This document shows positions 9,940-58,870 of a stretch of DNA of 64,000 nt, in pieces; the stretch's first letter is position 1; each line of letters starts with the position of its first letter. The position numbers were made by a program, and so were the translations under genes. Source of the stretch: an uncultured delta proteobacterium (lineage in GTDB: Bacteria; Desulfobacterota; Desulfomonilia; UBA1062); the NCBI GenBank assembly GCA_963798485.1, contig CAWCTR010000001.1, positions 27,453 to 91,452 on the forward strand, written 5' to 3'. The notes beneath the pieces were generated by a model, which saw nothing but the letters and a program-made list of their open reading frames with translations, searched no databases and had not been told where the DNA came from.

Positions 9940-11799
9940 TTAGGTAATAATATTTTTGAAGCCCCGGCCCCACAGCATGTTGTTCAGGCCGGAGACACGA
10001 TGGGTCCGTCTGGATACTGCGGCAGAGAATATCTCCATAGCGGCCCAGATCTCGATTGCGCCCCTGGCCCTGGTTATGCCGGTATAGACGAGTTCCCTGG
10101 TGAGCACGGGAGAGTCACGCTCCGGCAGTATGAGCAGCACGTTCTCGAACTCGGACCCCTGGCTCTTGTGGACCGTCATGGCAAAGGCGGTCTCGTGTGC
10201 CGGCAGCCTTAAGGGTGAAATCTTTCTGACAGACCCGTCCCTAGCCACAAAGCAGGCGCGCAGGTCATCCCCATCGCTTACGATGAGCCCGATATCGCCG
10301 TTCATGAGCTTCAAAGTATAGTCGTTTTCTGTGACGAGCACGGGCCTGCCGTGGTAATGCAGCCTGCCGGGCTCGATCAGGCCCGCGCCCTGCAGGATCT
10401 CCTCGACGCAGCGATTCAGCGCCTTTACACCGTATGGTCCTTCGCGGACAGGGCTCAGGATGCGCAACGTCTCGAAGAGCTGGAAGCACTCATGGATGTC
10501 GTCCGAAACAAGAAAACTTCCATATCTCTTGGTGACGATCTCTCTCAGTGACCTTTTCAATTCTCCCGGCAAAGGCAGTTCCTGCCGGCTAAGATCCTTT
10601 CCGTGGCCTGAGTGGAGTATCTCAAGGGATCGGCTGATATCTCCCGAGTTTACTGCCTCGCCCAGGGCGAAGATGGCGCTGTCTTTGCTGAACCGGTAGG
10701 TCCGGGTGAGCTCCACCAGCGAGTCCTGCATACCGCCTTCATCGCCTGCGGGCACGGCGCACCCTGTGGTCCTGGCCACAAGCCCGGCAAAGTCAGCCGA
10801 ATAGGCGTGCGAGCCGCCCACATCGCAGATATCCCCGAGCACGTAGCCTGCCTGAACGGAAGCGAGCTGATTTTTGTCGCCCAGGAGGATAAGGCGGGCG
10901 TTTTCCTTGAGGGCCTGGACGAGGTATGACATGAGGGCCAGGTCCGCCATAGACGCCTCATCTATGGCGATGACATCTGCACTTAAGGGGTTTGCTGCGC
11001 AGTGCCTTGGCAGTGTTGACCCGGGAGAGAATCCGAGGAGCCTGTGGATAGTGGTGGCCTCGTGGGGGATCATGGCCTTGATCCCCGGTGCGCAGTCCAT
11101 GAGTTCAAGGCTGCGCTGGATGGACTCTTCGATCCTGCGGGCCGCCTTGCCCGTAGGGGCCGCCAAGGCGATCTTCAGGTGAGGCTCCTGCTCGAGGAGC
11201 AAAGCCATGATCCTGCAGACGAGCGTGGTCTTGCCCGTGCCCGGCCCGCCCGTGATCACGCATAAACCCCTGGATACGGCAGCCGCAGCCGCTGCCTTGT
11301 GCCGGTCATGCCCGTCGGTCCCGTCCGGGGGAAACATGCGAGCGAGCCCCCTGGTGAAAAGGGCTTCGTCAAAGGGCATGACCCGGGCGTTCAAACGCAG
11401 CAGGACATCGGCCAGTCTCCGTTCGTTCTCATAGGAACGGTGGAGATAAAGCCTGCCTGACCCGTCCAGGATCAGGGGCCGATAATCGCCCGGGCCGCCC
11501 ACTACCGGGCACAACCTCAGGGCTGATATCCAGGCATCAGGTGATGGCAGGTCCAGGACAGCAGGCCCGGCTTCTTTGCCAATCATCCCTGTATTGATTT
11601 CGTTCAGATCCAGGCAGGTGTGCCCTTCCCTGCTGAGCCTGCTCACAAGGGCCGCTGCAAGGGCAAGCTCAGCGCTCTTCGAGCCTGCAAGCTGCACCAT
11701 GAACCGGGCGAAGTGCACATCAATGGGCTCGAAGAGACCTTCGGGCAGCATCAGGCCCTGCTCAAGACCTTTCTTGAAGTCAACAGCATCATACGCCAT
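9940..11799 (-). CDS. recD: Exodeoxyribonuclease V alpha subunit
   Basis: ITGGPGTGKTT, APTGKAA, TIHRLL, DEASM, GDKNQL, TVHKSQGSEF and YTGITRA motifs. Confidence 0.96.
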   Translation of the reverse strand: MAYDAVDFKKGLEQGLMLPEGLFEPIDVHFARFMVQLAGSKSAELALAAALVSRLSREGHTCLDLNEINTGMIGKEAGPAVLDLPSPDAWISALRLCPVVGGPGDYRPLILDGSGRLYLHRSYENERRLADVLLRLNARVMPFDEALFTRGLARMFPPDGTDGHDRHKAAAAAAVSRGLCVITGGPGTGKTTLVCRIMALLLEQEPHLKIALAAPTGKAARRIEESIQRSLELMDCAPGIKAMIPHEATTIHRLLGFSPGSTLPRHCAANPLSADVIAIDEASMADLALMSYLVQALKENARLILLGDKNQLASVQAGYVLGDICDVGGSHAYSADFAGLVARTTGCAVPAGDEGGMQDSLVELTRTYRFSKDSAIFALGEAVNSGDISRSLEILHSGHGKDLSRQELPLPGELKRSLREIVTKRYGSFLVSDDIHECFQLFETLRILSPVREGPYGVKALNRCVEEILQGAGLIEPGRLHYHGRPVLVTENDYTLKLMNGDIGLIVSDGDDLRACFVARDGSVRKISPLRLPAHETAFAMTVHKSQGSEFENVLLILPERDSPVLTRELVYTGITRARGAIEIWAAMEIFSAAVSRRTHRVSGLNNMLWGRGFKNIIT

Positions 11800-11956
11800 T
11801 TGTTTTGACCCTTTACTCATCAACAAGTATAATATCAGTTCATCCGGAACAAGCCTTCTTTGCCAGGCACTGAACATAACTTGCTTTGATCGTATACTTT
11901 GCTTTCATCATGAATACTTTGCATTGATCATATATCCCTCCCCAATCGACAATCAG

Positions 11957-12390
11957 GTCCCCTCCCCCCTTGCGGGGGAGGGACAGGGAGAGGGGTATGA
12001 ATAAAATTAATCTCCAACGAGCAAGAGATCTGAGAAAACGATCCACAGACGCGGAACGCCTCCTGTGGAAGCACCTCCGCACAAAGAGGATGAACAACCT
12101 GAAATTCAAGCGGCAGCAACCAATCGGTAATTATATTGTGGACTTCATCTGCTTTGAGAAAAGGATCGTTATCGAACTCGACGGCGGGCAGCATGCACTC
12201 CAGAGAGACAAGGACAAGGGGCGCGACTCCTGGCTGGAAGGCCAGGGCTTCCTCATCCTGAGATTCTGGAATAATGATGTCCTCACCAATATCCATGGTG
12301 TCATGGAGGTTATCATACGTACTTGTTCTGAAGCCCATAGCCTTTAATCTGCCCCCTCTCCCTGTCCCTCCCCCTTGCGGGGGAGGGGAC
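11957..12390. mobile_element. DUF559 nuclease gene enclosed by ~38-bp inverted palindromic arms (family A, gene-carrying form)
   Basis: 11957-11995 GTCCCCTCCCCCCTTGCGGGGGAGGGACAGGGAGAGGGG is the reverse complement of 12352-12390 except for the loop. The arms abut the start and stop codons, and the unit separates recB from recD. Confidence 0.7.
11997..12347 (+). CDS. DUF559 / Vsr-like endonuclease domain protein
   Basis: RARDLRKRSTDAERLLW, KFKRQQPIGNYIVDF, IELDGGQH, RDSWL and LRFWNNDV motifs. Confidence 0.93.
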   Translation: MNKINLQRARDLRKRSTDAERLLWKHLRTKRMNNLKFKRQQPIGNYIVDFICFEKRIVIELDGGQHALQRDKDKGRDSWLEGQGFLILRFWNNDVLTNIHGVMEVIIRTCSEAHSL

Positions 12391-12452
12391 TTAAATCCCC
12401 CAACCTATTATGGAACATCCTCATCATATTAGCACTTTCGAGGGGCCAATTA

Positions 12453-12492
12453 ACTCCTCCCCCCTTGATGGGGGAGGCTGGGAGAGGGTGAA
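12453..12492 (+). repeat. Family A palindrome, solo copy
   Basis: ACTCCTCCCCCCTTGATGGGGGAGGCTGGGAGAGGGTGAA is nearly identical to 13185-13223 inside recB. Confidence 0.9.
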
Positions 12493-12509
12493 TATGGAAT
12501 AATTCCTTA

Positions 12510-16375
<3,866 letters not shown>

Positions 16376-16382
<7 letters not shown>

Positions 16383-19300
16383 TTGCCAGCCTCCAGAGAG
16401 TCGATGAGAGGACCGTACACCGTCATGGCCAGCTCGCGGAACTCGTCATCCAGGGGATCAGTGCCTGCAAAGCAGATCCGTATGGCCGCATCTTCGCTTT
16501 CACCGCTCTTATTCCAGCCCCCGCTCCAGGCCTTGCCAGCCTCCTGCATGGCCCTCTGTTCATTACCCGTCTTCTTCATGTGCTCTGCATAGGCGTACGA
16601 GCTTTTGGGGAAGAAATGGAGCGGCCGGCACAGGCCCTGCCAGTACACGTCCAGGAGCCCCTTCAGCACGGCAAAAGGCTCCTCCCCAGAGCTGATGCAG
16701 GCCTGCCCTGCCTTGTGGATGTGCATGCCCGCTACCTGCGCACCCGGGCTCACGGCCTTGAGCAGGAGCACGCTGACCCAGGCCCGCATGAGGTCGCCCG
16801 GTTTCAGGTCCGCATAGCGGAACGAGAGGAACCCGCCGCGGCCAAGACAGTCAACTGCCCCGGTGATCGTGAAGGCGCCCACGGTCACGCTCACGTCTTT
16901 CCTGACCATCTCATAGCCCGCCATGGCCCGCCTGATGAGCGGGAGGAAGGCATCGATCTCACTGGCAATGCCTGCAAGCGCCAGCTCTCCCGGCACGCCG
17001 TGGGGCAGCACCCCTTCGGCCCTGAGCCGTGCCACGTCCGTCTCGCAGCCCTTTCCTCTCAGCCTCTCAGCCAGGATCCGCTGCTGCAGTCCGTATTGAT
17101 CGAGACCCGTTATGGCAAAGGGCTCCCGGTCGAGGAGTGCATCTTCCTCCCGGGGCAGCACAGCGCCAAGGCGGTGCCTCAGGAAGAACCGGGCCGGGTT
17201 CCGGAAGAACTCCAGGAGGCGCTCCATGTTCACGCCCAGCCATTCTTGCTCGGGTTCGGAAAGCCTCACCGCCTCCCCCTGCCCTGCCTGTGCCCCTGTG
17301 CGGAGCGCCCTGGCAGCGTCCGCATTGTCCCTGGAATAGCTGAACAGGCCCGTGCCTGCGGTGAAGTATTTGGGGTTGAAGGCCTGGAGGCAGTGGCGCT
17401 TCACCACTCGCTTGCTCACCGGCCCCTCCGGGCTCGTAAAGGCCCTGTCGAGGTATTCCAGCAGGCTGCTCACCACCACCGAGGGCGGGATAGCGGCATT
17501 GTCCTGGATGCCCTGGCCCACGTGGCTGATGGAGAGCACGTTACGGGCCGAGAGCAGGGCCTCGAGGAAGAGGTAGAGGTCGTCTTCGCGCCGGGAGCGG
17601 TCGCCCTTGCGCGGGTGCATGGACATGAGATCGAGCCCGCTTGCGTAGTCCCTGCGCGGGAAGGATTCATGGTTCATGCCCATGAGGCAGATCACCTTGA
17701 ACGGGATGCTCCGCATGGGCAGCATGGAGCAGAAGGTGACCCCGCGCTCCAGGAACCCGGCCCCTTCCGCGGCACTGCCGAAGGCGTTGCCCAGGTGGTG
17801 CCGCACCACGTCACAGCTCACCGTGCCGGTGAACCCGGCATCCCGCGCGATCTTCTCCAGGTTCCGCACAGCGGATTTCAGCCGCAGAAGCTCCGAAGGG
17901 TCTCCTCATCCGCAGCAAACAGGTCGTCGATGATCGTGAGGAGCACCTGTGACCATTCGCCAAGCCCCCGCTCCTGCCTGAGCTCGTCGACTATGGCAAA
18001 GAGCCTCTCCACGAAATCCACAAAGCTGCCCAGGAGATCTGCCGAGGCAGGGTCCATGCCGGTCAAGGGTGCGATGCCCTCGAACAGCTCTTCTCCCCCG
18101 CCATGGCATAGCCCAGCAGGAGCCTCTTCAGACCGAAGCCCCAGGTGTTCTCCTCAAACCCGGGCAGGCCCATTGCCTCTTTATCACGACCGTCCCTGCC
18201 CCACCGGATGTTGGCCCCAGTAACCCATGCATGGACCTTCCTCACCGCCTCCTCGTCCATGCCGAACCGCGCCCGCACCGGCGCCTTGTCCAGCAGATCC
18301 ATGACGAGCGAAGCCTCGAAGCGCTGCCCAGGCAAATCGAGCACAGCCATGAGCGCATCCGCCAGCTGGGAGCTGCGCCTGAACGACCGGTCCGAGATGC
18401 TGTAGGGTATGCGGCGCGAATCCCCCCTATCCATATCGAACACGGCCCGTATAAAGGGCGCATAAGACTCAATATCAGGCGCCATAACCAGCACGTCCCG
18501 CGGCTCCAGCCCTTCCTTGCCCTCCTCCCCCTCCTTATCTTCCTCTCCCCTCTGGGGAGAGGACTGAGGTGAGGGGTACCTTTTACCCTCCTCCCCCCTG
18601 GTGGGGGAGGATTGAGGAGAGGGGGACAAAGGAGAGGGGGAATTCTCGAAGAGTTCCAGCAGCGTATCCAGCAGCACCTCCACCTCCCGCATGGGGCTGT
18701 GACACGAGTGCACCTGGATAGAGCAATCGCCAACCTCCACCTCCTCCGCCCCCTCATCGCCGCTCGTCCTCAAATTCAATATGTCATCCTGAACCTTAGC
18801 CAGCATGGTAGCTCGCCCGCCCCCCACAAACAAATCCGTCTCCTCAGGCTCCAGATCAATGACCATGTCCAGGAAGTTCCTACCAAGCCTGCCCATGCTT
18901 GCCAGAAGATCATTGCGCGATTCCAGGTGCAAATCCGCCTCCGGCACCTTGCTAACGAACCTGGTGATGCGCCTTTCCGGCATGATGTCCGCCCAGTATT
19001 CCCTGCAGGGGTTCAGGCAGTAGAGGCTGACATCCATCAAAGCGGAAAGACCCTTCAGCACCTCCAGATGGAATGCAGGCAGATACGAGATGCCGAAGAT
19101 GGACACCCTCTCGGGCAGCTTCGACACATCCGAGCGCGCAAGCCCGCTGCTGAAGAGCTGCTTGAGCCGGGCGCGGTGGTTCGCATCGTCCCCTTCAACA
19201 ATCTTGTTCCAGAGCACGGCCTGCCAGTTCTCCGGGTAGCCCGCAGGCGCATTGCCGCCCTCTTCCCACCCGAGCACCAGCTCGGGCCTGAATATGACAT

Positions 19301-19715
19301 ACTGGTCATAGATGTTCGCCATCATGGCGCTGAACTGGTAGAGCTTCATGCCTGCAGTGTCGCCCTGGAGGTAGTCCCTGATCCGGCTGAAGCCGCCCAA
19401 GCCCAGGAGCCCGGGCAGACAGTCCATGATGCGCAGCGTCATGGCATCCTTCTCGAACAGAGCGGGCTGCGTGACCCCCGGCAGGATGCGCGAGAACATG
19501 TCCAGCACAAAGGCATTGGGAAACGGCCAGCTGACGTTCGCGCACACCCCGCTGCTGCGCGCCAGCTCCATGGAGAGCCAGCGCTGCATGCCGCGGCTCT
19601 GCACAACGATGACCTCGGGAGCAATCGGCGATGAGAGCGGTTCGGACAAAGATAGAGCAAGGGCCTGCGAAAGGACCTCGAGCCGGTTGCTCTCAATAAG
19701 TCTCAGGCCTGACAA
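16376..19715 (-). CDS. recC: Exodeoxyribonuclease V gamma subunit; frameshifts near 18090 and 17880; in-frame repeat insertion
   Basis: SNRLEVL, VVQSRGMQRWL, LNPCREYWADI, HSCHSPMREVE, PRDVLVMAPDI, FCSMLPMRSIPF and FLEALLSAR motifs; upstream of recB. Confidence 0.95.
18511..18640. repeat. Two tandem family A palindromes inside recC
   Basis: 18541-18576 TCCTCTCCCCTCTGGGGAGAGGACTGAGGTGAGGGG and 18588-18625; they encode PSPQSSPTRGEE and PSPQSSPQRGEE. Confidence 0.88.
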
Positions 19716-22823: not shown

Positions 22824-23446
22824 AGTCATAACCTCCGGCAAAGCCGGAGGCTTGATTAAACCATGAACCGCTCAAAGCGGTTTAACCCGAGTACCTTTGT
22901 CCCTAGCTGAATATGTTCATCTGCTCAAGCCGCTGGTCTTCTTGCTCCTGCTTCTTGATGTATGACCGGACAACTTCCTCATCCATCCCTACCGTGCTCA
23001 CATAGTAGCCCCTGGCCCAAAATTGCTGACCCGTGAAATTCTTCCTCCGCCCCAGGTATGCCCGTGCTATATGTATCGCACTCTTCCCCTTGATATACCC
23101 GATCACTTGGGATACCGAATACTTCGGCGGGATCGATATCAGCATGTGTATATGGTCCTGCATCAGATGCCCTTCGATAACTTCGCTCTCCCTCTGTATG
23201 GCCAGTCTCTTCATCACCTCACCAAGATACTTCCTCAACTGCCTATACAACGCCTTCCTTCGATATTTCGGTATCCATACAACATGATACTTGCATTCCC
23301 ATCGGGTGTGCCTTAGACTCTGTTCTTCTTCCATGTTTTGCCTCCTCTTCTGTAAACTTTGAGCGGTTCACAGTTCGGAGGCTCTTCAATTTTCCCGGAA
23401 TTGTCAAACTCCGGTGAGTCACCCCGGCATAGCCGGGGGTTTACCT
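22824..23446 (-). mobile_element. IS200/IS605-family insertion sequence (tnpA only, ~623 bp)
   Basis: Subterminal hairpins CCCCGGCTATGCCGGGG and CCTCCGGCTTTGCCGGAGG; GAACCGCTCAAAG inverted at both ends; no target duplication seen; inserted after TTAT. Confidence 0.92.
22903..23334 (-). CDS. tnpA: IS200-family Y1 (HUH) transposase
   Basis: KYHVVWIPKYRRK, DHIH (HUH), IKGKSA, FWARGY and SYIKKQ (catalytic Tyr) motifs. Confidence 0.97.
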   Translation of the reverse strand: MEEEQSLRHTRWECKYHVVWIPKYRRKALYRQLRKYLGEVMKRLAIQRESEVIEGHLMQDHIHMLISIPPKYSVSQVIGYIKGKSAIHIARAYLGRRKNFTGQQFWARGYYVSTVGMDEEVVRSYIKKQEQEDQRLEQMNIFS

Positions 23447-45782: not shown

Positions 45783-48700
45783 TCAATCGAATAAGACCAT
45801 CTGATCGGGCTTCGGCTTCTTGTGCTTCACCCTTGTATCTTCAGAATATGTGGCAGGGATCCGGCCCACGAACTCCGACGGGAGCTCTTGCGGGCATACA
45901 AGGTAGAGCAGGTCTTTTGCCCGGGTCATGCCGACATAAAATAGGTTCTGCTCCTCCTCAAGGGAAGACCCGGCCAGCGGGAATACCCCCCGCATGAGCC
46001 CTGCCATGAAGACGCACCTGAATTCAAGCCCCTTGGCAGCGTGCGCCGTGATGACATGGACCTTCTCGGCGCCCAAGGCACTCTGGTCATTACTGAGCCG
46101 GAGGAACTCCACAAAATTCTCCACGTTATCACCAAACAATTGTGCATATTGATAAAAAGGACTGCGGGCATCCAGGTCCGGGAGCTTGAAAATCTCCGAG
46201 GCATCTATCTTCGTGAGCCGCGCAGAAACAGACCCAGTCAATCCTTCCAGGAAAACCCCGGCCTGTTTAATCTTGTCTTGCATATGGCCAGCAGGATACT
46301 GTCCTGCTTGAATATTTTTCAAGGCCTGTTCCCCTACCCCTTTTACCGAAGGCTCCCATTCTTTGCCCACAAGCAGCCCGATGCGCTCCCTGATTCCGCG
46401 CATCTCGGCAAAAGGCTTGGCATAGGCGGTATCATGGGGGATTGATGCCCGTGCGAGGGCCTCCATAACGGGCATTGCCTGGCTTTTGGTGCGAACGATT
46501 ACTGCCATATCACTTAATCCGTATTCACCCTTTGCCTTGCCCACGCTCGAATGGGTAAGCCCGCCTGAAAGGGCCTCGATCTCCCGGGCAATGAAGTCAT
46601 ACGGCCTGTCGGTTCGAACGACCCTTATGGGTGATGTTTCCCGCTGAGCGCATACCGCATCGTGTCCGATAAAGGCGTTCGATGCAAAAGCTATATGGGC
46701 GCCCAGCCGGTGGGTGGCACTCAGGTGTATCTTCATACATTCGGGGCTGTCTTGAATAAAATCCTCAAAGGAGGCCTTGCTGCTCCCCCGGAAACCGTAT
46801 ATGGCCTGGTTCGGGTCGCCGATGACCATAACGCTCTTGGCGCCTTTGCTTAAGGCCTTAAGGAACGTGTATTGCAGAGGGTTGATATCCTGGAACTCAT
46901 CCACCATGACATGCTGCCAGTGCTGCGCACCCGCACCCGATGAAACGAGCCGAGTCGCTTCTTCGATAAGCCCCTCGTAGGTGAGAAAACCCTGTGACCT
47001 CATGAGGGAAAGCAGTCCCGCCTGCTCCCGGTCAAGGGCCTGCCCTGTGCTCTGACGCAGCAGGAGCCCATCAACCCATTTTTTTACATCCTTGATGAGA
47101 GCCTCATCCCCCTCACCCCGACCTCTCCCCCTGGCAGGGGGCGATGGGGAGAGGTCCTTGCCGATTGCCGGTGCAGCCGCCTTTTCCAGCATGGCTTCAT
47201 CGGCAATCTCAAAGCCCATACCTGCATCGTGCATGATCCTGGCCGCTAAAGAGTGGAAGGTAGTGACCTCTTTTTCTATTGGCTCCTCATTTTTGAGGTC
47301 GACCTTACCCAGCCTGTCCCTGATCTCCTGTGCAGCCCGGTTAGTGAAGGTAACGGCCAAGATCGGGGTTTCGCCCCTGTCAATCAGCTGCCTGACGCGC
47401 TCAACCAGGACACGGGTCTTGCCCGTACCCGGCCCGGCGATAACGGTGATGGGGCCTTCATCCCATGCAACAGCCGCGCATTGTTCATCATTGAGTTGCA
47501 ACTCGCTCCGGTCAGGCGCATCCTCGATCTTCTTCCCTAGGTATGTTCTCTTCTTTCTCACCGGTGCATCTACCAATCCTTGGGCAAAGAGCATGTCCTG
47601 CTCGTTATCCTTGAACACCCGTACGCGGCCGAACTTGCCGTCGTATCCAGCCTCTTTGTCCACCTCGCCCAGCCTCATGCGCTTTACAGCCAGTGCAAGC
47701 GTTTCTCCGGCCACGGACCTTATCTCATCTAACTCCGCATCCAGAAGCAGCGGCAGCTCGCCGCCAAGCTGCCCGGTAAGCTTCTCGGATAGAGCCATGA
47801 CCTTGTTCGTGGGGCTCGCAACATGCATGATCTCAGAGAGGATCTCTGTGAGCGGGATGAGTGAATAAAAATCCCTGGCGCTTTGAGGCCTCTCACCTTC
47901 GGGCCGGTCGGCAAGCTCCTCCACACGGTTCAATACGCCCACAGTGAGCGGCTTGCCGCACACGGGGCAGATGCCTTTATACTCCCTTGTCTGCTCCGGC
48001 ATGACCACCACACCACAGTCCCGGTGGCCGTCCAGGTGGTACTTGCCCTCCTCGGGGAAGAACTCCACGGTGCCCAGCAAGCCGACGCCGGTTACCATGG
48101 CCTTGCGGATAGCATAGTAGTCAAGTCACGGTCTCAAAGACCGTTGCCTCACGCCCCAGCTTTTCCGCAGAGTGGGCATCGGAGTTGGAGATGAGGTGAT
48201 ACCTGTCCAGGCTCTTCACCATCCAGTTCATGGGCGGATCGGAAGACAACCCGGTCTCTACGGCAAAGATGTGGGGCTCCAAGTCGAGATAGCATTCCTT
48301 GATGGTATCGAAGCCGGACTTCGACCCCAGGGCGGAGAACCACGGGGTCCAGATATGGGCCGGGATCAGGAAGGCATCCGCGCTTGCCTCCAGCACGATC
48401 TCCAGCAGGTTGCGCGAGGTGATGCCGAGGATGGGCCTGCCGTCCGAGAGGATGTTGCCGACCTTTGCAAGTGAGGCCCCTATCTTCTTTGCTATTGCTA
48501 GGTCCGGCGCGCCGATGACGTGGTGCACCTTGCGGACCCGCTCGCCTTGTTTATATATGGTGCTGATCTCACCGGTCAGGATGAAACGCGTCTGCGCAGG
48601 GTCGTTCCTGAGGCGGTACATGCCGGGCTCGGCCGGGGCAAGCTCCTCTTCCATCTCCTTCAACCATGACGGGTGCGTAAGGTCTCCGGTGCCGAGCACT

Positions 48701-53390: not shown

Positions 53391-53578
53391 AGAGGCAGTT
53401 GCAAAACTCACCAAAGTGTCACCCCCGCGAAAGCGGGGGTCCAGTAGGCTGTAAAGAAACTGGATTCCCGCTTTCGCGGGAATGACGCATGAAAAGAGAT
53501 CACCCTGAGACATGAAAAGACGGTATAGTTTCATGCTATGTCCTTCTCCCCTCGCGGGAGAGGGTCTGGGTGAGATGG
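53391..53578. repeat. Family C unit (53418-53486) and family A palindrome (53541-53578)
   Basis: GTCACCCCCGCGAAAGCGGGGGTCCAG...CTGGATTCCCGCTTTCGCGGGAATGAC; CCTTCTCCCCTCGCGGGAGAGGGTCTGGGTGAG. Confidence 0.88.
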
Positions 53579-58457: not shown

Positions 58458-58870
58458 TTATTGCGAGGAGCCACAACGGGTTTCACCCCTGTGGCTCCTT
58501 GAAATAAACTTGGCATAGACCCTGTTTATTCAAGTCCCCCTCCTTTCTAAGGAGGGGACAGGGGAGATTTGTTTTTATATGTGTCATTCCCGCGGAGGCG
58601 GGAATCCAGTCTTTTCAAGAACCTCTGGACCCCCGCCTTCGCGGGAGAGACACCTTTTTTGAGTTATCATCTACAGGAACAGTCACGACTGCTCCCTACA
58701 AAAATCTCCCCCCTACCCGCTTTTTTCCAAAGGCAGGAACCTGCCAATAACCCTATGTCGGTCATTGCGAGCGTAAGCGAAGCAATCCCTGCATCTTGGC
58801 ACAGTATACAGATTGCCACGCCGCCTTCGGCTCCTCGCAATGACCGATGGTTAGGTTATGCAAAGGTCTC
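58458..58870. repeat. Intergenic mosaic of family A, C, E and B palindromes
   Basis: A arms at 58534-58570 and 58701-58736; C unit at 58583-58651; GTAG-type arm at 58672-58699; B unit at 58761-58844 with outer GGTTATGCAAAGGTCTC. Confidence 0.85.

Follow-up and report, generated by a model that had tools for sequence, protein, structure and literature searches.

Repeats of the BoxC/PIT/TM type have been recognised since the 1990s, and DUF559 is a very common protein family that is labelled "unknown function" and includes YcjD of Escherichia coli. According to the accessible text of Holder et al. (Nucleic Acids Research (NAR) 2015, PMC4666352), hundreds of bacterial genomes contain such repeats, which are linked to genomic instability, with their origin, function and mobility gene not known; the E. 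coli copies are described there as exclusively intergenic and as associated with local rearrangement, and no transposase or integrase was found near the repeats. The same text contains neither "ycjD" nor "DUF559", and our full-text search of the openly accessible literature found no paper tying DUF559 or YcjD to these repeats. Here we describe, in a 64,000-nucleotide stretch of the genome of an uncultured delta proteobacterium (contig CAWCTR010000001.1; the whole stretch is referred to as the window), a DUF559 gene that is enclosed by two inverted repeats and separates recB from recD. The locus is probably a selfish nuclease cassette whose ends spread as well, as solo and paired copies without the gene. 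The pairing of the gene with its arms and the orientation of these arms recur across phyla, and solo, paired and internally deleted gene-less forms exist. We suggest, tentatively, that DUF559 could be the missing partner enzyme of BoxC/PIT/TM repeats, the two together forming a widespread class of mobile elements that lack a transposase.

Two other described systems resemble the locus. As in REP/REPIN-RAYT systems, one small enzyme gene lies between inverted, short structured repeats that also exist as solo and inverted-pair copies, and each gene copy has its own repeat variant. However, the RAYT is a Y1 HUH transposase, whereas the enzyme here is a predicted Vsr-like PD-(D/E)xK nuclease and the repeats carry a third, mirror block. 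A preliminary description of the window, made from its sequence alone, had proposed a REP/RAYT-like system. The repeat does occur in gene-less solo and paired copies, like the REPs and REPINs of RAYTs, but the assignment does not hold: the genome has eight Y1_Tnp matches, and a triplex-type repeat within 1.5 kb is absent from all five of the Y1 loci that were examined. The candidate put forward there, an autonomous nuclease-bearing member of a repeat family, was thus right in outline and placed in the wrong family. One Y1 (IS200/RAYT-type) transposase gene lies in the window itself (22948-23304; G000:C1:50400-50756, reverse strand, G000 being the genome of the window) and is bordered by a 19-nt inverted repeat of its own. 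The EDxHD homing endonucleases, such as I-Bth0305I, share a Vsr-like catalytic domain with the locus and are, as the locus probably is, selfish genes sited in conserved host genes, and DUF559 domains of relatives occur in intein-like segments and methylase open reading frames (ORFs). In contrast to them, the protein described here is a 116-residue catalytic domain alone, without an N-terminal NUMOD DNA-binding region; its gene is intergenic, with no intron or intein, and the vehicle is a pair of repeat arms that are also dispersed in the genome. An insertion sequence or a miniature inverted-repeat transposable element (MITE) with a transposase was rejected, as there is no DDE, serine or tyrosine transposase between the arms and no target-site duplication was seen.

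The whole cassette is about 435 bp long. Its DUF559 gene (11997-12347, forward strand; ATG at 11997, TAA at 12345-12347) has 116 codons, is the sole ORF with a family match between the arms, and is antisense relative to recD and recB, lying between recD and the 3' end of recB. The left arm (11957-11996, forward strand) is built of a pyrimidine arm (Y-arm, 11959-11969), a TTGC loop (11970-11973), a purine arm (R-arm, 11974-11982), the spacer ACA and a purine tail (11986-11995); the element measures 37 nt, and its tail ends one base short of the DUF559 ATG. The right arm (12352-12390, reverse strand), which starts four bases past the stop codon, is an inverted copy of the left arm and comprises, as stated on the forward strand, a pyrimidine tail (12352-12362), TGT, a Y-arm (12366-12374), a TTGC loop (12375-12378) and an R-arm (12379-12388). 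The two arms were called as inverted repeats in a repeat search (I1, 46 nt at 78%; I2, 12 nt at 100%). Coordinates, Pfam and the repeat search therefore bear out the earlier account of two inverted arms at the start and stop of a 116-residue DUF559 gene splitting recB from recD. As the loop reads TTGC on the forward strand in both arms, the stems of this cassette are inverted while the loop is not; at most other DUF559 loci the loops are inverted together with the arms.

The preliminary description had taken the arms for C-rich/G-rich hairpins. The hairpin is present, with a DNA fold of -11.1 kcal/mol in the left arm and -11.4 to -11.8 kcal/mol in the right arm (z about -2; folding covered the hairpin part of the arms, with z ranging from -0.8 to -2.3), but it is not a plain one: the pyrimidine arm, loop and purine arm are followed by a spacer and a mirror purine tail. 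When the tail was compared with the purine arm in 113 distinct arms, a mirror match was better in 60 and a direct match in 18, with 31 ties and four symmetric arms, a count that overstates independence because the arms are related to each other. The search rule for TM repeats given in PMC4666352 consists of three consecutive blocks C-G-G (class II purine motif) with stems of 6-15 nt and loops of 1-6 nt. The left arm, with an 11-nt Y-arm, a 4-nt loop, a 9-nt R-arm, a 3-nt loop and a 10-nt tail, falls within this rule. By their sequence, the cassette arms fit repeats of the BoxC/PIT/TM type and are laid out like an intrastrand triplex of the class II purine motif. They share with this family the three-block C-G-G order, the short loops, a length of about 37 nt, many dispersed copies and inverted pairs of two variants. 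They differ in that no mobility function has been reported for the family, whereas here the repeats form both ends of a nuclease gene cassette, and in that at least seven copies in the window lie in frame within genes, in contrast to the intergenic copies of E. coli.

The protein encoded between the arms matches the Pfam DUF559 profile (PF04480) with an E-value of 4.8e-43 and 145.9 bits (cut-off 20.6) over profile positions 4-108 of 109; the only Pfam matches are DUF559 and MTES_1575. The NCBIfam YcjD model PRK09767 scored 121.5 bits on it, under the 218-bit cut-off. The nearest solved structure is PDB 3hrl (E 4.1e-29), and a profile of 14 DUF559 domains matched 3r3p, the catalytic domain of I-Bth0305I, with an E-value of 3.2e-5 over positions 12-106. 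The accessible parts of Steczkiewicz et al. 2012, in their grouping, and of Taylor et al. (NAR 2011, PMC3239194), in their description of the EDxHD family, agree with this profile match. Residues D49, E60, D62, H66, D73 and R76 are all present and are invariant or nearly so in the 14-sequence family alignment; judging from the family, acidic and histidine residues of this set would be catalytic. The protein is accordingly predicted to be a Vsr-like PD-(D/E)xK nuclease related to the catalytic domain of I-Bth0305I. Membership in a listed defence system was considered and rejected, PADLOC giving weak domain-level rows only (DpdF, 1.3e-4; Hhe, 0.002).

Comparison with related genomes revealed that the cassette is an insertion. 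In G011 and G007, the closest relatives of G000 by RecD identity (77-79%), the end of the RecB match and the start of the RecD match are 5-12 nt apart, compared with 636 bp in G000, and an alignment places recB and recD within about 20 nt of one another; in six more distant relatives the gap between the two matches ranges from -15 to 44 nt. The sole other DUF559 gene of G000 (G000:C30:196743-197066), about 51% identical to that of the window, sits in the cdsA-dxr junction. This junction is 601 bp long in G000. In nine of the ten congeners examined, dxr begins with its ATG immediately after the stop codon of cdsA, and the tenth, G013, has a 94-bp spacer. The arms around the second gene belong to another variant, in which a C6/G6 hairpin has an A/T loop and is followed by a tail made of a G-run, so that the two DUF559 genes of this genome carry different arms, in the manner of RAYT gene copies. 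At both junctions of G000, the gene and its two inverted arms constitute one inserted unit; the earlier suggestion to compare recB-recD junctions in relatives has thus yielded empty sites, for both cassettes. The junction of G003 has the same recD-side spacer and a solo, somewhat degenerate homologue of the left arm, with the gene and the right arm absent. Either the arm was there first and the gene arrived later, or the cassette decayed in G003. The recD-side spacer is common to G000, G003 and, in part, G002, and is missing from the nearer G011 and G007, which requires loss or exchange.

We scanned one genome per species with a six-sequence alignment as the query and obtained 589 confirmed relatives, the best 80 of which were used. 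These 80 loci represent the branch nearest the window protein, not a random sample of the family, and come from at least 13 phyla; four were set aside because a flank fell short of 120 bp, leaving 76. An element was found within 120 bp of the DUF559 gene upstream in 62 of the 76 loci, downstream in 64, on both sides in 56 and on neither side in six. DNA more than 300 bp from the gene in the same loci, used as an internal control, held 27 sites over a total of 168,638 bp, which amounts to 0.024 per 150 bp. This corresponds to a roughly 35-fold enrichment at both ends of the gene, and the expectation that DUF559 genes would be flanked by the repeat more often than other DNA has thus been borne out. 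The expected orientation, with the tail toward the gene, was found for 55 upstream and 62 downstream arms, with 51 loci having both. Arms resembled each other more within a locus (0.80) than between loci (0.685). Small DUF559 genes in the genomes of relatives were boxed in the same way.

The second loop differs between upstream and downstream arms: a CC or CT second loop occurs in 15 of the 62 downstream arms and in one of the 55 upstream arms. In the accessible text of PMC4666352, every inverted pair in E. coli is reported to combine one copy of type A (TTA) with one of type B (CCG). Taken together with the loop skew, this makes the E. coli pairs look like gene-less cassettes. The distribution of the gene is patchy, DUF559 being found in 15 of 41 relatives' genomes and in three of 14 congeners, and the identity between proteins shows no relation to host phylum (rho 0.013, attained by 776 of 2000 permutations). 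In two loci (L005, 667-3054, reverse strand; L018) DUF559 lies in frame within N6/N4 DNA methylase ORFs, between translated arms. In three others (L011, L012 and L021) it is found, with no arms, within intein-like segments that interrupt a methylase motif; the intein matches of these segments are under the Pfam cut-off.

Gene-less forms of the element are spread through the genome of the window. Our broad repeat detector is lenient, finding 115 sites in G000 and 51-71 in three randomised genomes; it was therefore used solely for local enrichment against the internal control, and family counts were made with strict patterns. Despite the leniency of the detector, the sub-families of G000 are plain repeats. 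The cassette's own variant accounts for seven hairpins in 4.3 Mb, five of them within 6.7 kb of the cassette. The pattern CCCTCTCCC-N(0-30)-GGGAGAGGG has two matches, compared with none in 100 shuffles, and GGGAGAGGG by itself occurs 80 times in the 4.3-Mb genome, 11 of these occurrences falling inside the 64-kb window. About eight gene-less pairs face inward; they measure about 110 bp, and their spacers are conserved. Four pairs face outward. Between a NUDIX-like gene and polA (G000:C7:589321-589535; L139, 1022-1236) there is a cassette with an internal deletion. Its two inward arms surround a 64-codon ORF whose middle is a remnant of the DUF559 C-terminus (10 of 15 residues identical, E 7e-6).

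Two side observations concern these gene-less copies. Outward pairs, in which the order is tail-hairpin, hairpin-tail and thus the reverse of the cassette layout, are numerous in the genome G028 and occur in G000 at C16:5852-5945 and C22:122765-122858; such a pair would look like a right end joined to a left end. At G000:C4:137796-142391 (L138), at least six copies of another sub-family are found within 5 kb, with genes for a class I (Glu/Gln-type) tRNA synthetase, an L,D-transpeptidase, a peptidase M15 and a RadC-like protein as neighbours.

The left-arm purine tail is likely to provide the Shine-Dalgarno region of the DUF559 gene. In 37 of 51 loci, no more than 12 nt separate the tail from the earliest in-frame start codon. 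A promoter-like site that matches the consensus at 11 of 12 positions (TTGACC-17-TATAAT, 11805-11833, forward strand) lies outside the cassette and is directed at the DUF559 gene; the search by consensus match that found it gave three sites, with 0.9 expected. A search of 11700-13400 against Rfam at an E-value of 1 returned 27 rows, all well under the gathering scores, and matched no RNA family.

The best-supported mechanism would be homing-like copying by a Vsr-type nuclease at triplex-type ends. In this scheme, the DUF559 nuclease would recognise and cut an arm, in folded or duplex form, or a pair of arms without a gene, and host repair would copy the cassette or its arms into the cut in a homing-like manner, with the arms of about 40 bp supplying homology. 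The purine tail would act as the ribosome-binding site, and arms free of stop codons would allow copies to persist in frame inside genes. If DUF559 is the general partner of BoxC/PIT/TM repeats, a minimal Vsr-like nuclease may read a folded three-block DNA end, with host repair copying the nuclease gene and its ends; these ends could double as ribosome-binding sites and translatable linkers, and the cassette could live between essential genes or in frame inside them, taking the role that introns and inteins play for other homing endonucleases. We know of no strand-transfer activity for such a nuclease alone.

Several observations weigh against this interpretation. G000 has at least six repeat sub-families and two DUF559 genes, and the cassette arm variant is not the commonest of them genome-wide. 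In G028, which is 97% complete, the purine-arm-plus-tail pattern matches 100 times and a search for DUF559 finds nothing even at an E-value of 1; G002 and G003 have 19 and 15 matches and no DUF559 above the cut-off. At least five repeat copies were found in eight of 15 DUF559-positive and five of 26 DUF559-negative genomes, so that the relation of repeat abundance to DUF559 presence is an association, not a rule. Arms were not detected on one or both sides of the gene in 20 of the 76 loci, and the flanking figure, which describes the branch nearest the window protein, may not hold for all of DUF559. The co-variation of protein and repeat is weak: over 51 loci, protein identity and arm similarity correlate with rho 0.14 (reached by two of 2000 permutations) and 0.11 (25 of 2000), and co-inheritance alone could produce this. 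The cutting of the arms is itself a predicted activity. No target-site duplication was seen by eye at either cassette of G000 or at the gene-less pairs. Nine public sequencing runs matched the region, all as Logan contigs (best share 0.19) and with no RNA run among those listed, and the contigs of four runs over 10800-13800 contained no excision or inversion joint at the cassette, which is weak evidence because these were short, low-depth pieces. Finally, ycjD of E. coli K-12 has a degenerate element at its stop codon and a canonical BoxC some 190 bp further downstream, and its upstream side is free of such elements; as it is flanked only in part, we rejected it as a clean boxed example. In the ycjD-fabI spacer (L042, 3540-4340), the last ~23 bases of ycjD are duplicated downstream, and the canonical BoxC lies between the duplicate and fabI.

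Some of these points would be expected if the repeats spread by other means, through host replication or repair at non-B DNA or through another enzyme, with DUF559 as a passenger or captured gene for which the arms are mere expression signals (a ribosome-binding site or operon insulation). Such an account would accommodate the repeat-rich genomes without DUF559 (G028, G002 and G003), the sub-families that far outnumber nuclease genes in G000 and the short distance from tail to start codon, and it agrees with the intergenic, rearrangement-linked E. coli copies without a mobility gene in the accessible text of Holder et al. We nevertheless regard it as unlikely, as capture could hardly bring about an enrichment of roughly 35-fold at the two ends of the gene, with one fixed, inward orientation, in at least 13 phyla, the gene and its arms were gained together at two junctions, and the cassette's own variant is clustered around the cassette.

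DUF559 might instead be a structure-specific nuclease that serves the host by processing the triplex or hairpin DNA made by the repeats, thereby limiting instability, with gene and repeats kept adjacent by co-selection or co-regulation. The related enzyme Vsr is a repair nickase (Pfam clan; Steczkiewicz 2012, accessible part), TM repeats are a reported cause of genomic instability (PMC4666352), and both cassettes, with several solo copies, are sited within or next to repair and replication genes (recB, recC, the UvrD-like gene and polA). A housekeeping role, however, leaves unexplained why the gene is present in so few congeners, why protein similarity does not follow phylum, why it was inserted between operon genes that otherwise abut, and why it occurs in intein-like and in-frame contexts and decays to gene-less remnants, and we consider it improbable. 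We give least weight to the reading of the arms as a recombination switch that flips the DUF559 gene by programmed inversion and not as the termini of a mobile unit. In its favour, the arms are inverted and about 40 bp long, and DUF559 is, in the accessible part of Milman et al. 2023, 14-fold enriched among predicted programmed-inversion targets, i.e. genes flanked by inverted repeats. Yet the cassette encodes no invertase, DUF559 being its only ORF with a family match, the public-read contigs showed no change-of-strand joint (weak evidence, as above), and the empty sites, solo copies and in-frame copies would go unexplained; a switch is thus very improbable. The enrichment reported by Milman et al. 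also fits the interpretation as a selfish nuclease cassette. This interpretation accounts for the insertion of gene and arms as one unit, for their pairing across phyla and for the gene-less derivatives, and is the one we favour.

All the gene-less copies listed in the preliminary description (at 12453, about four in recB, two in recC, and at 47108, 53541, 58534 and 58701) are present. A solo element (12455-12488, forward strand) lies between the cassette and the stop codon of recB. Four copies are in frame in the recB linker, at 13238-13266 (reverse strand), 13187-13219 (forward strand), 13131-13172 (reverse strand) and 12932-12958 (partial, with the purine blocks only), and this linker comprises about 136 residues in G000, compared with about 30 in the RecB of G003. 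Two in-frame sites are found in recC (18527-18576 and 18584-18624, in a ...SPSPLSPSPQSSPTRGEEG... stretch) and one within the ORF of a 779-residue UvrD-like helicase (47108-47154), so that recB, recC and the helicase gene together hold at least seven translated, in-frame copies. A further solo copy is intergenic (53542-53575, forward strand). The last site is a gene-less pair consisting of a good copy (58536-58566, forward strand) and a degenerate inverted partner near 58700-58740, with a different palindromic element in between. Tolerance of short palindromic repeats in frame within coding genes is familiar from Rickettsia palindromic elements and other MITEs. The copies described here are alike in this respect; unlike them, they have an autonomous-looking form with a nuclease gene, and we know of no partner gene of the DUF559 kind for Rickettsia palindromic elements or MITEs within genes.

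As for the neighbouring genes, recD (9940-11877, reverse strand; Pfam RecD_N and AAA_19/AAA_30) is likely to have its true start near 11790 (MAYDAVD...), which would match the start of its relatives in the junction alignment. The spacer upstream of recD holds three direct 18-nt repeats (ATACTTTGC.T..ATCAT) at 11876-11931, adjoining the left arm. The recB gene (12510-16391, reverse strand) is spread over three frames owing to two frameshifts near 15075 and 14305, its C-terminal part being 12510-14345, and recC (16376-19715), whose ORF matches Pfam Exonuc_V_gamma, is interrupted between 17869 and 18066. These breaks do not coincide with any repeat; they may represent real decay of recBCD or assembly errors, and recB of G007 is likewise fragmented. 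A different palindromic element at 12985-13070 is also translated in frame in the recB linker, and it is probably a widespread repeat, since many contigs from unrelated public runs stop at 13038 and 13071. In public run X6, a contig of depth 32 passes directly from 12904 to 13320 and leaves out the repeat-filled linker. As this contig is only 85% alike, it may belong to another organism and possibly represents the recB of a relative without the inserts.

The recurrence of the pairing in many phyla suggests a candidate partner enzyme for a family of repeats that has long lacked an explanation. If DUF559 and the BoxC/PIT/TM repeats are partners, two puzzles would become testable by simple assays in E. 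coli, and a restriction-fold nuclease joined to a non-B DNA end would constitute a new type of mobile element. The same partnership would explain many odd Gly/Pro/Ser-rich inserts in bacterial proteins and, in the organism described here, a recBCD operon peppered with in-frame inserts.

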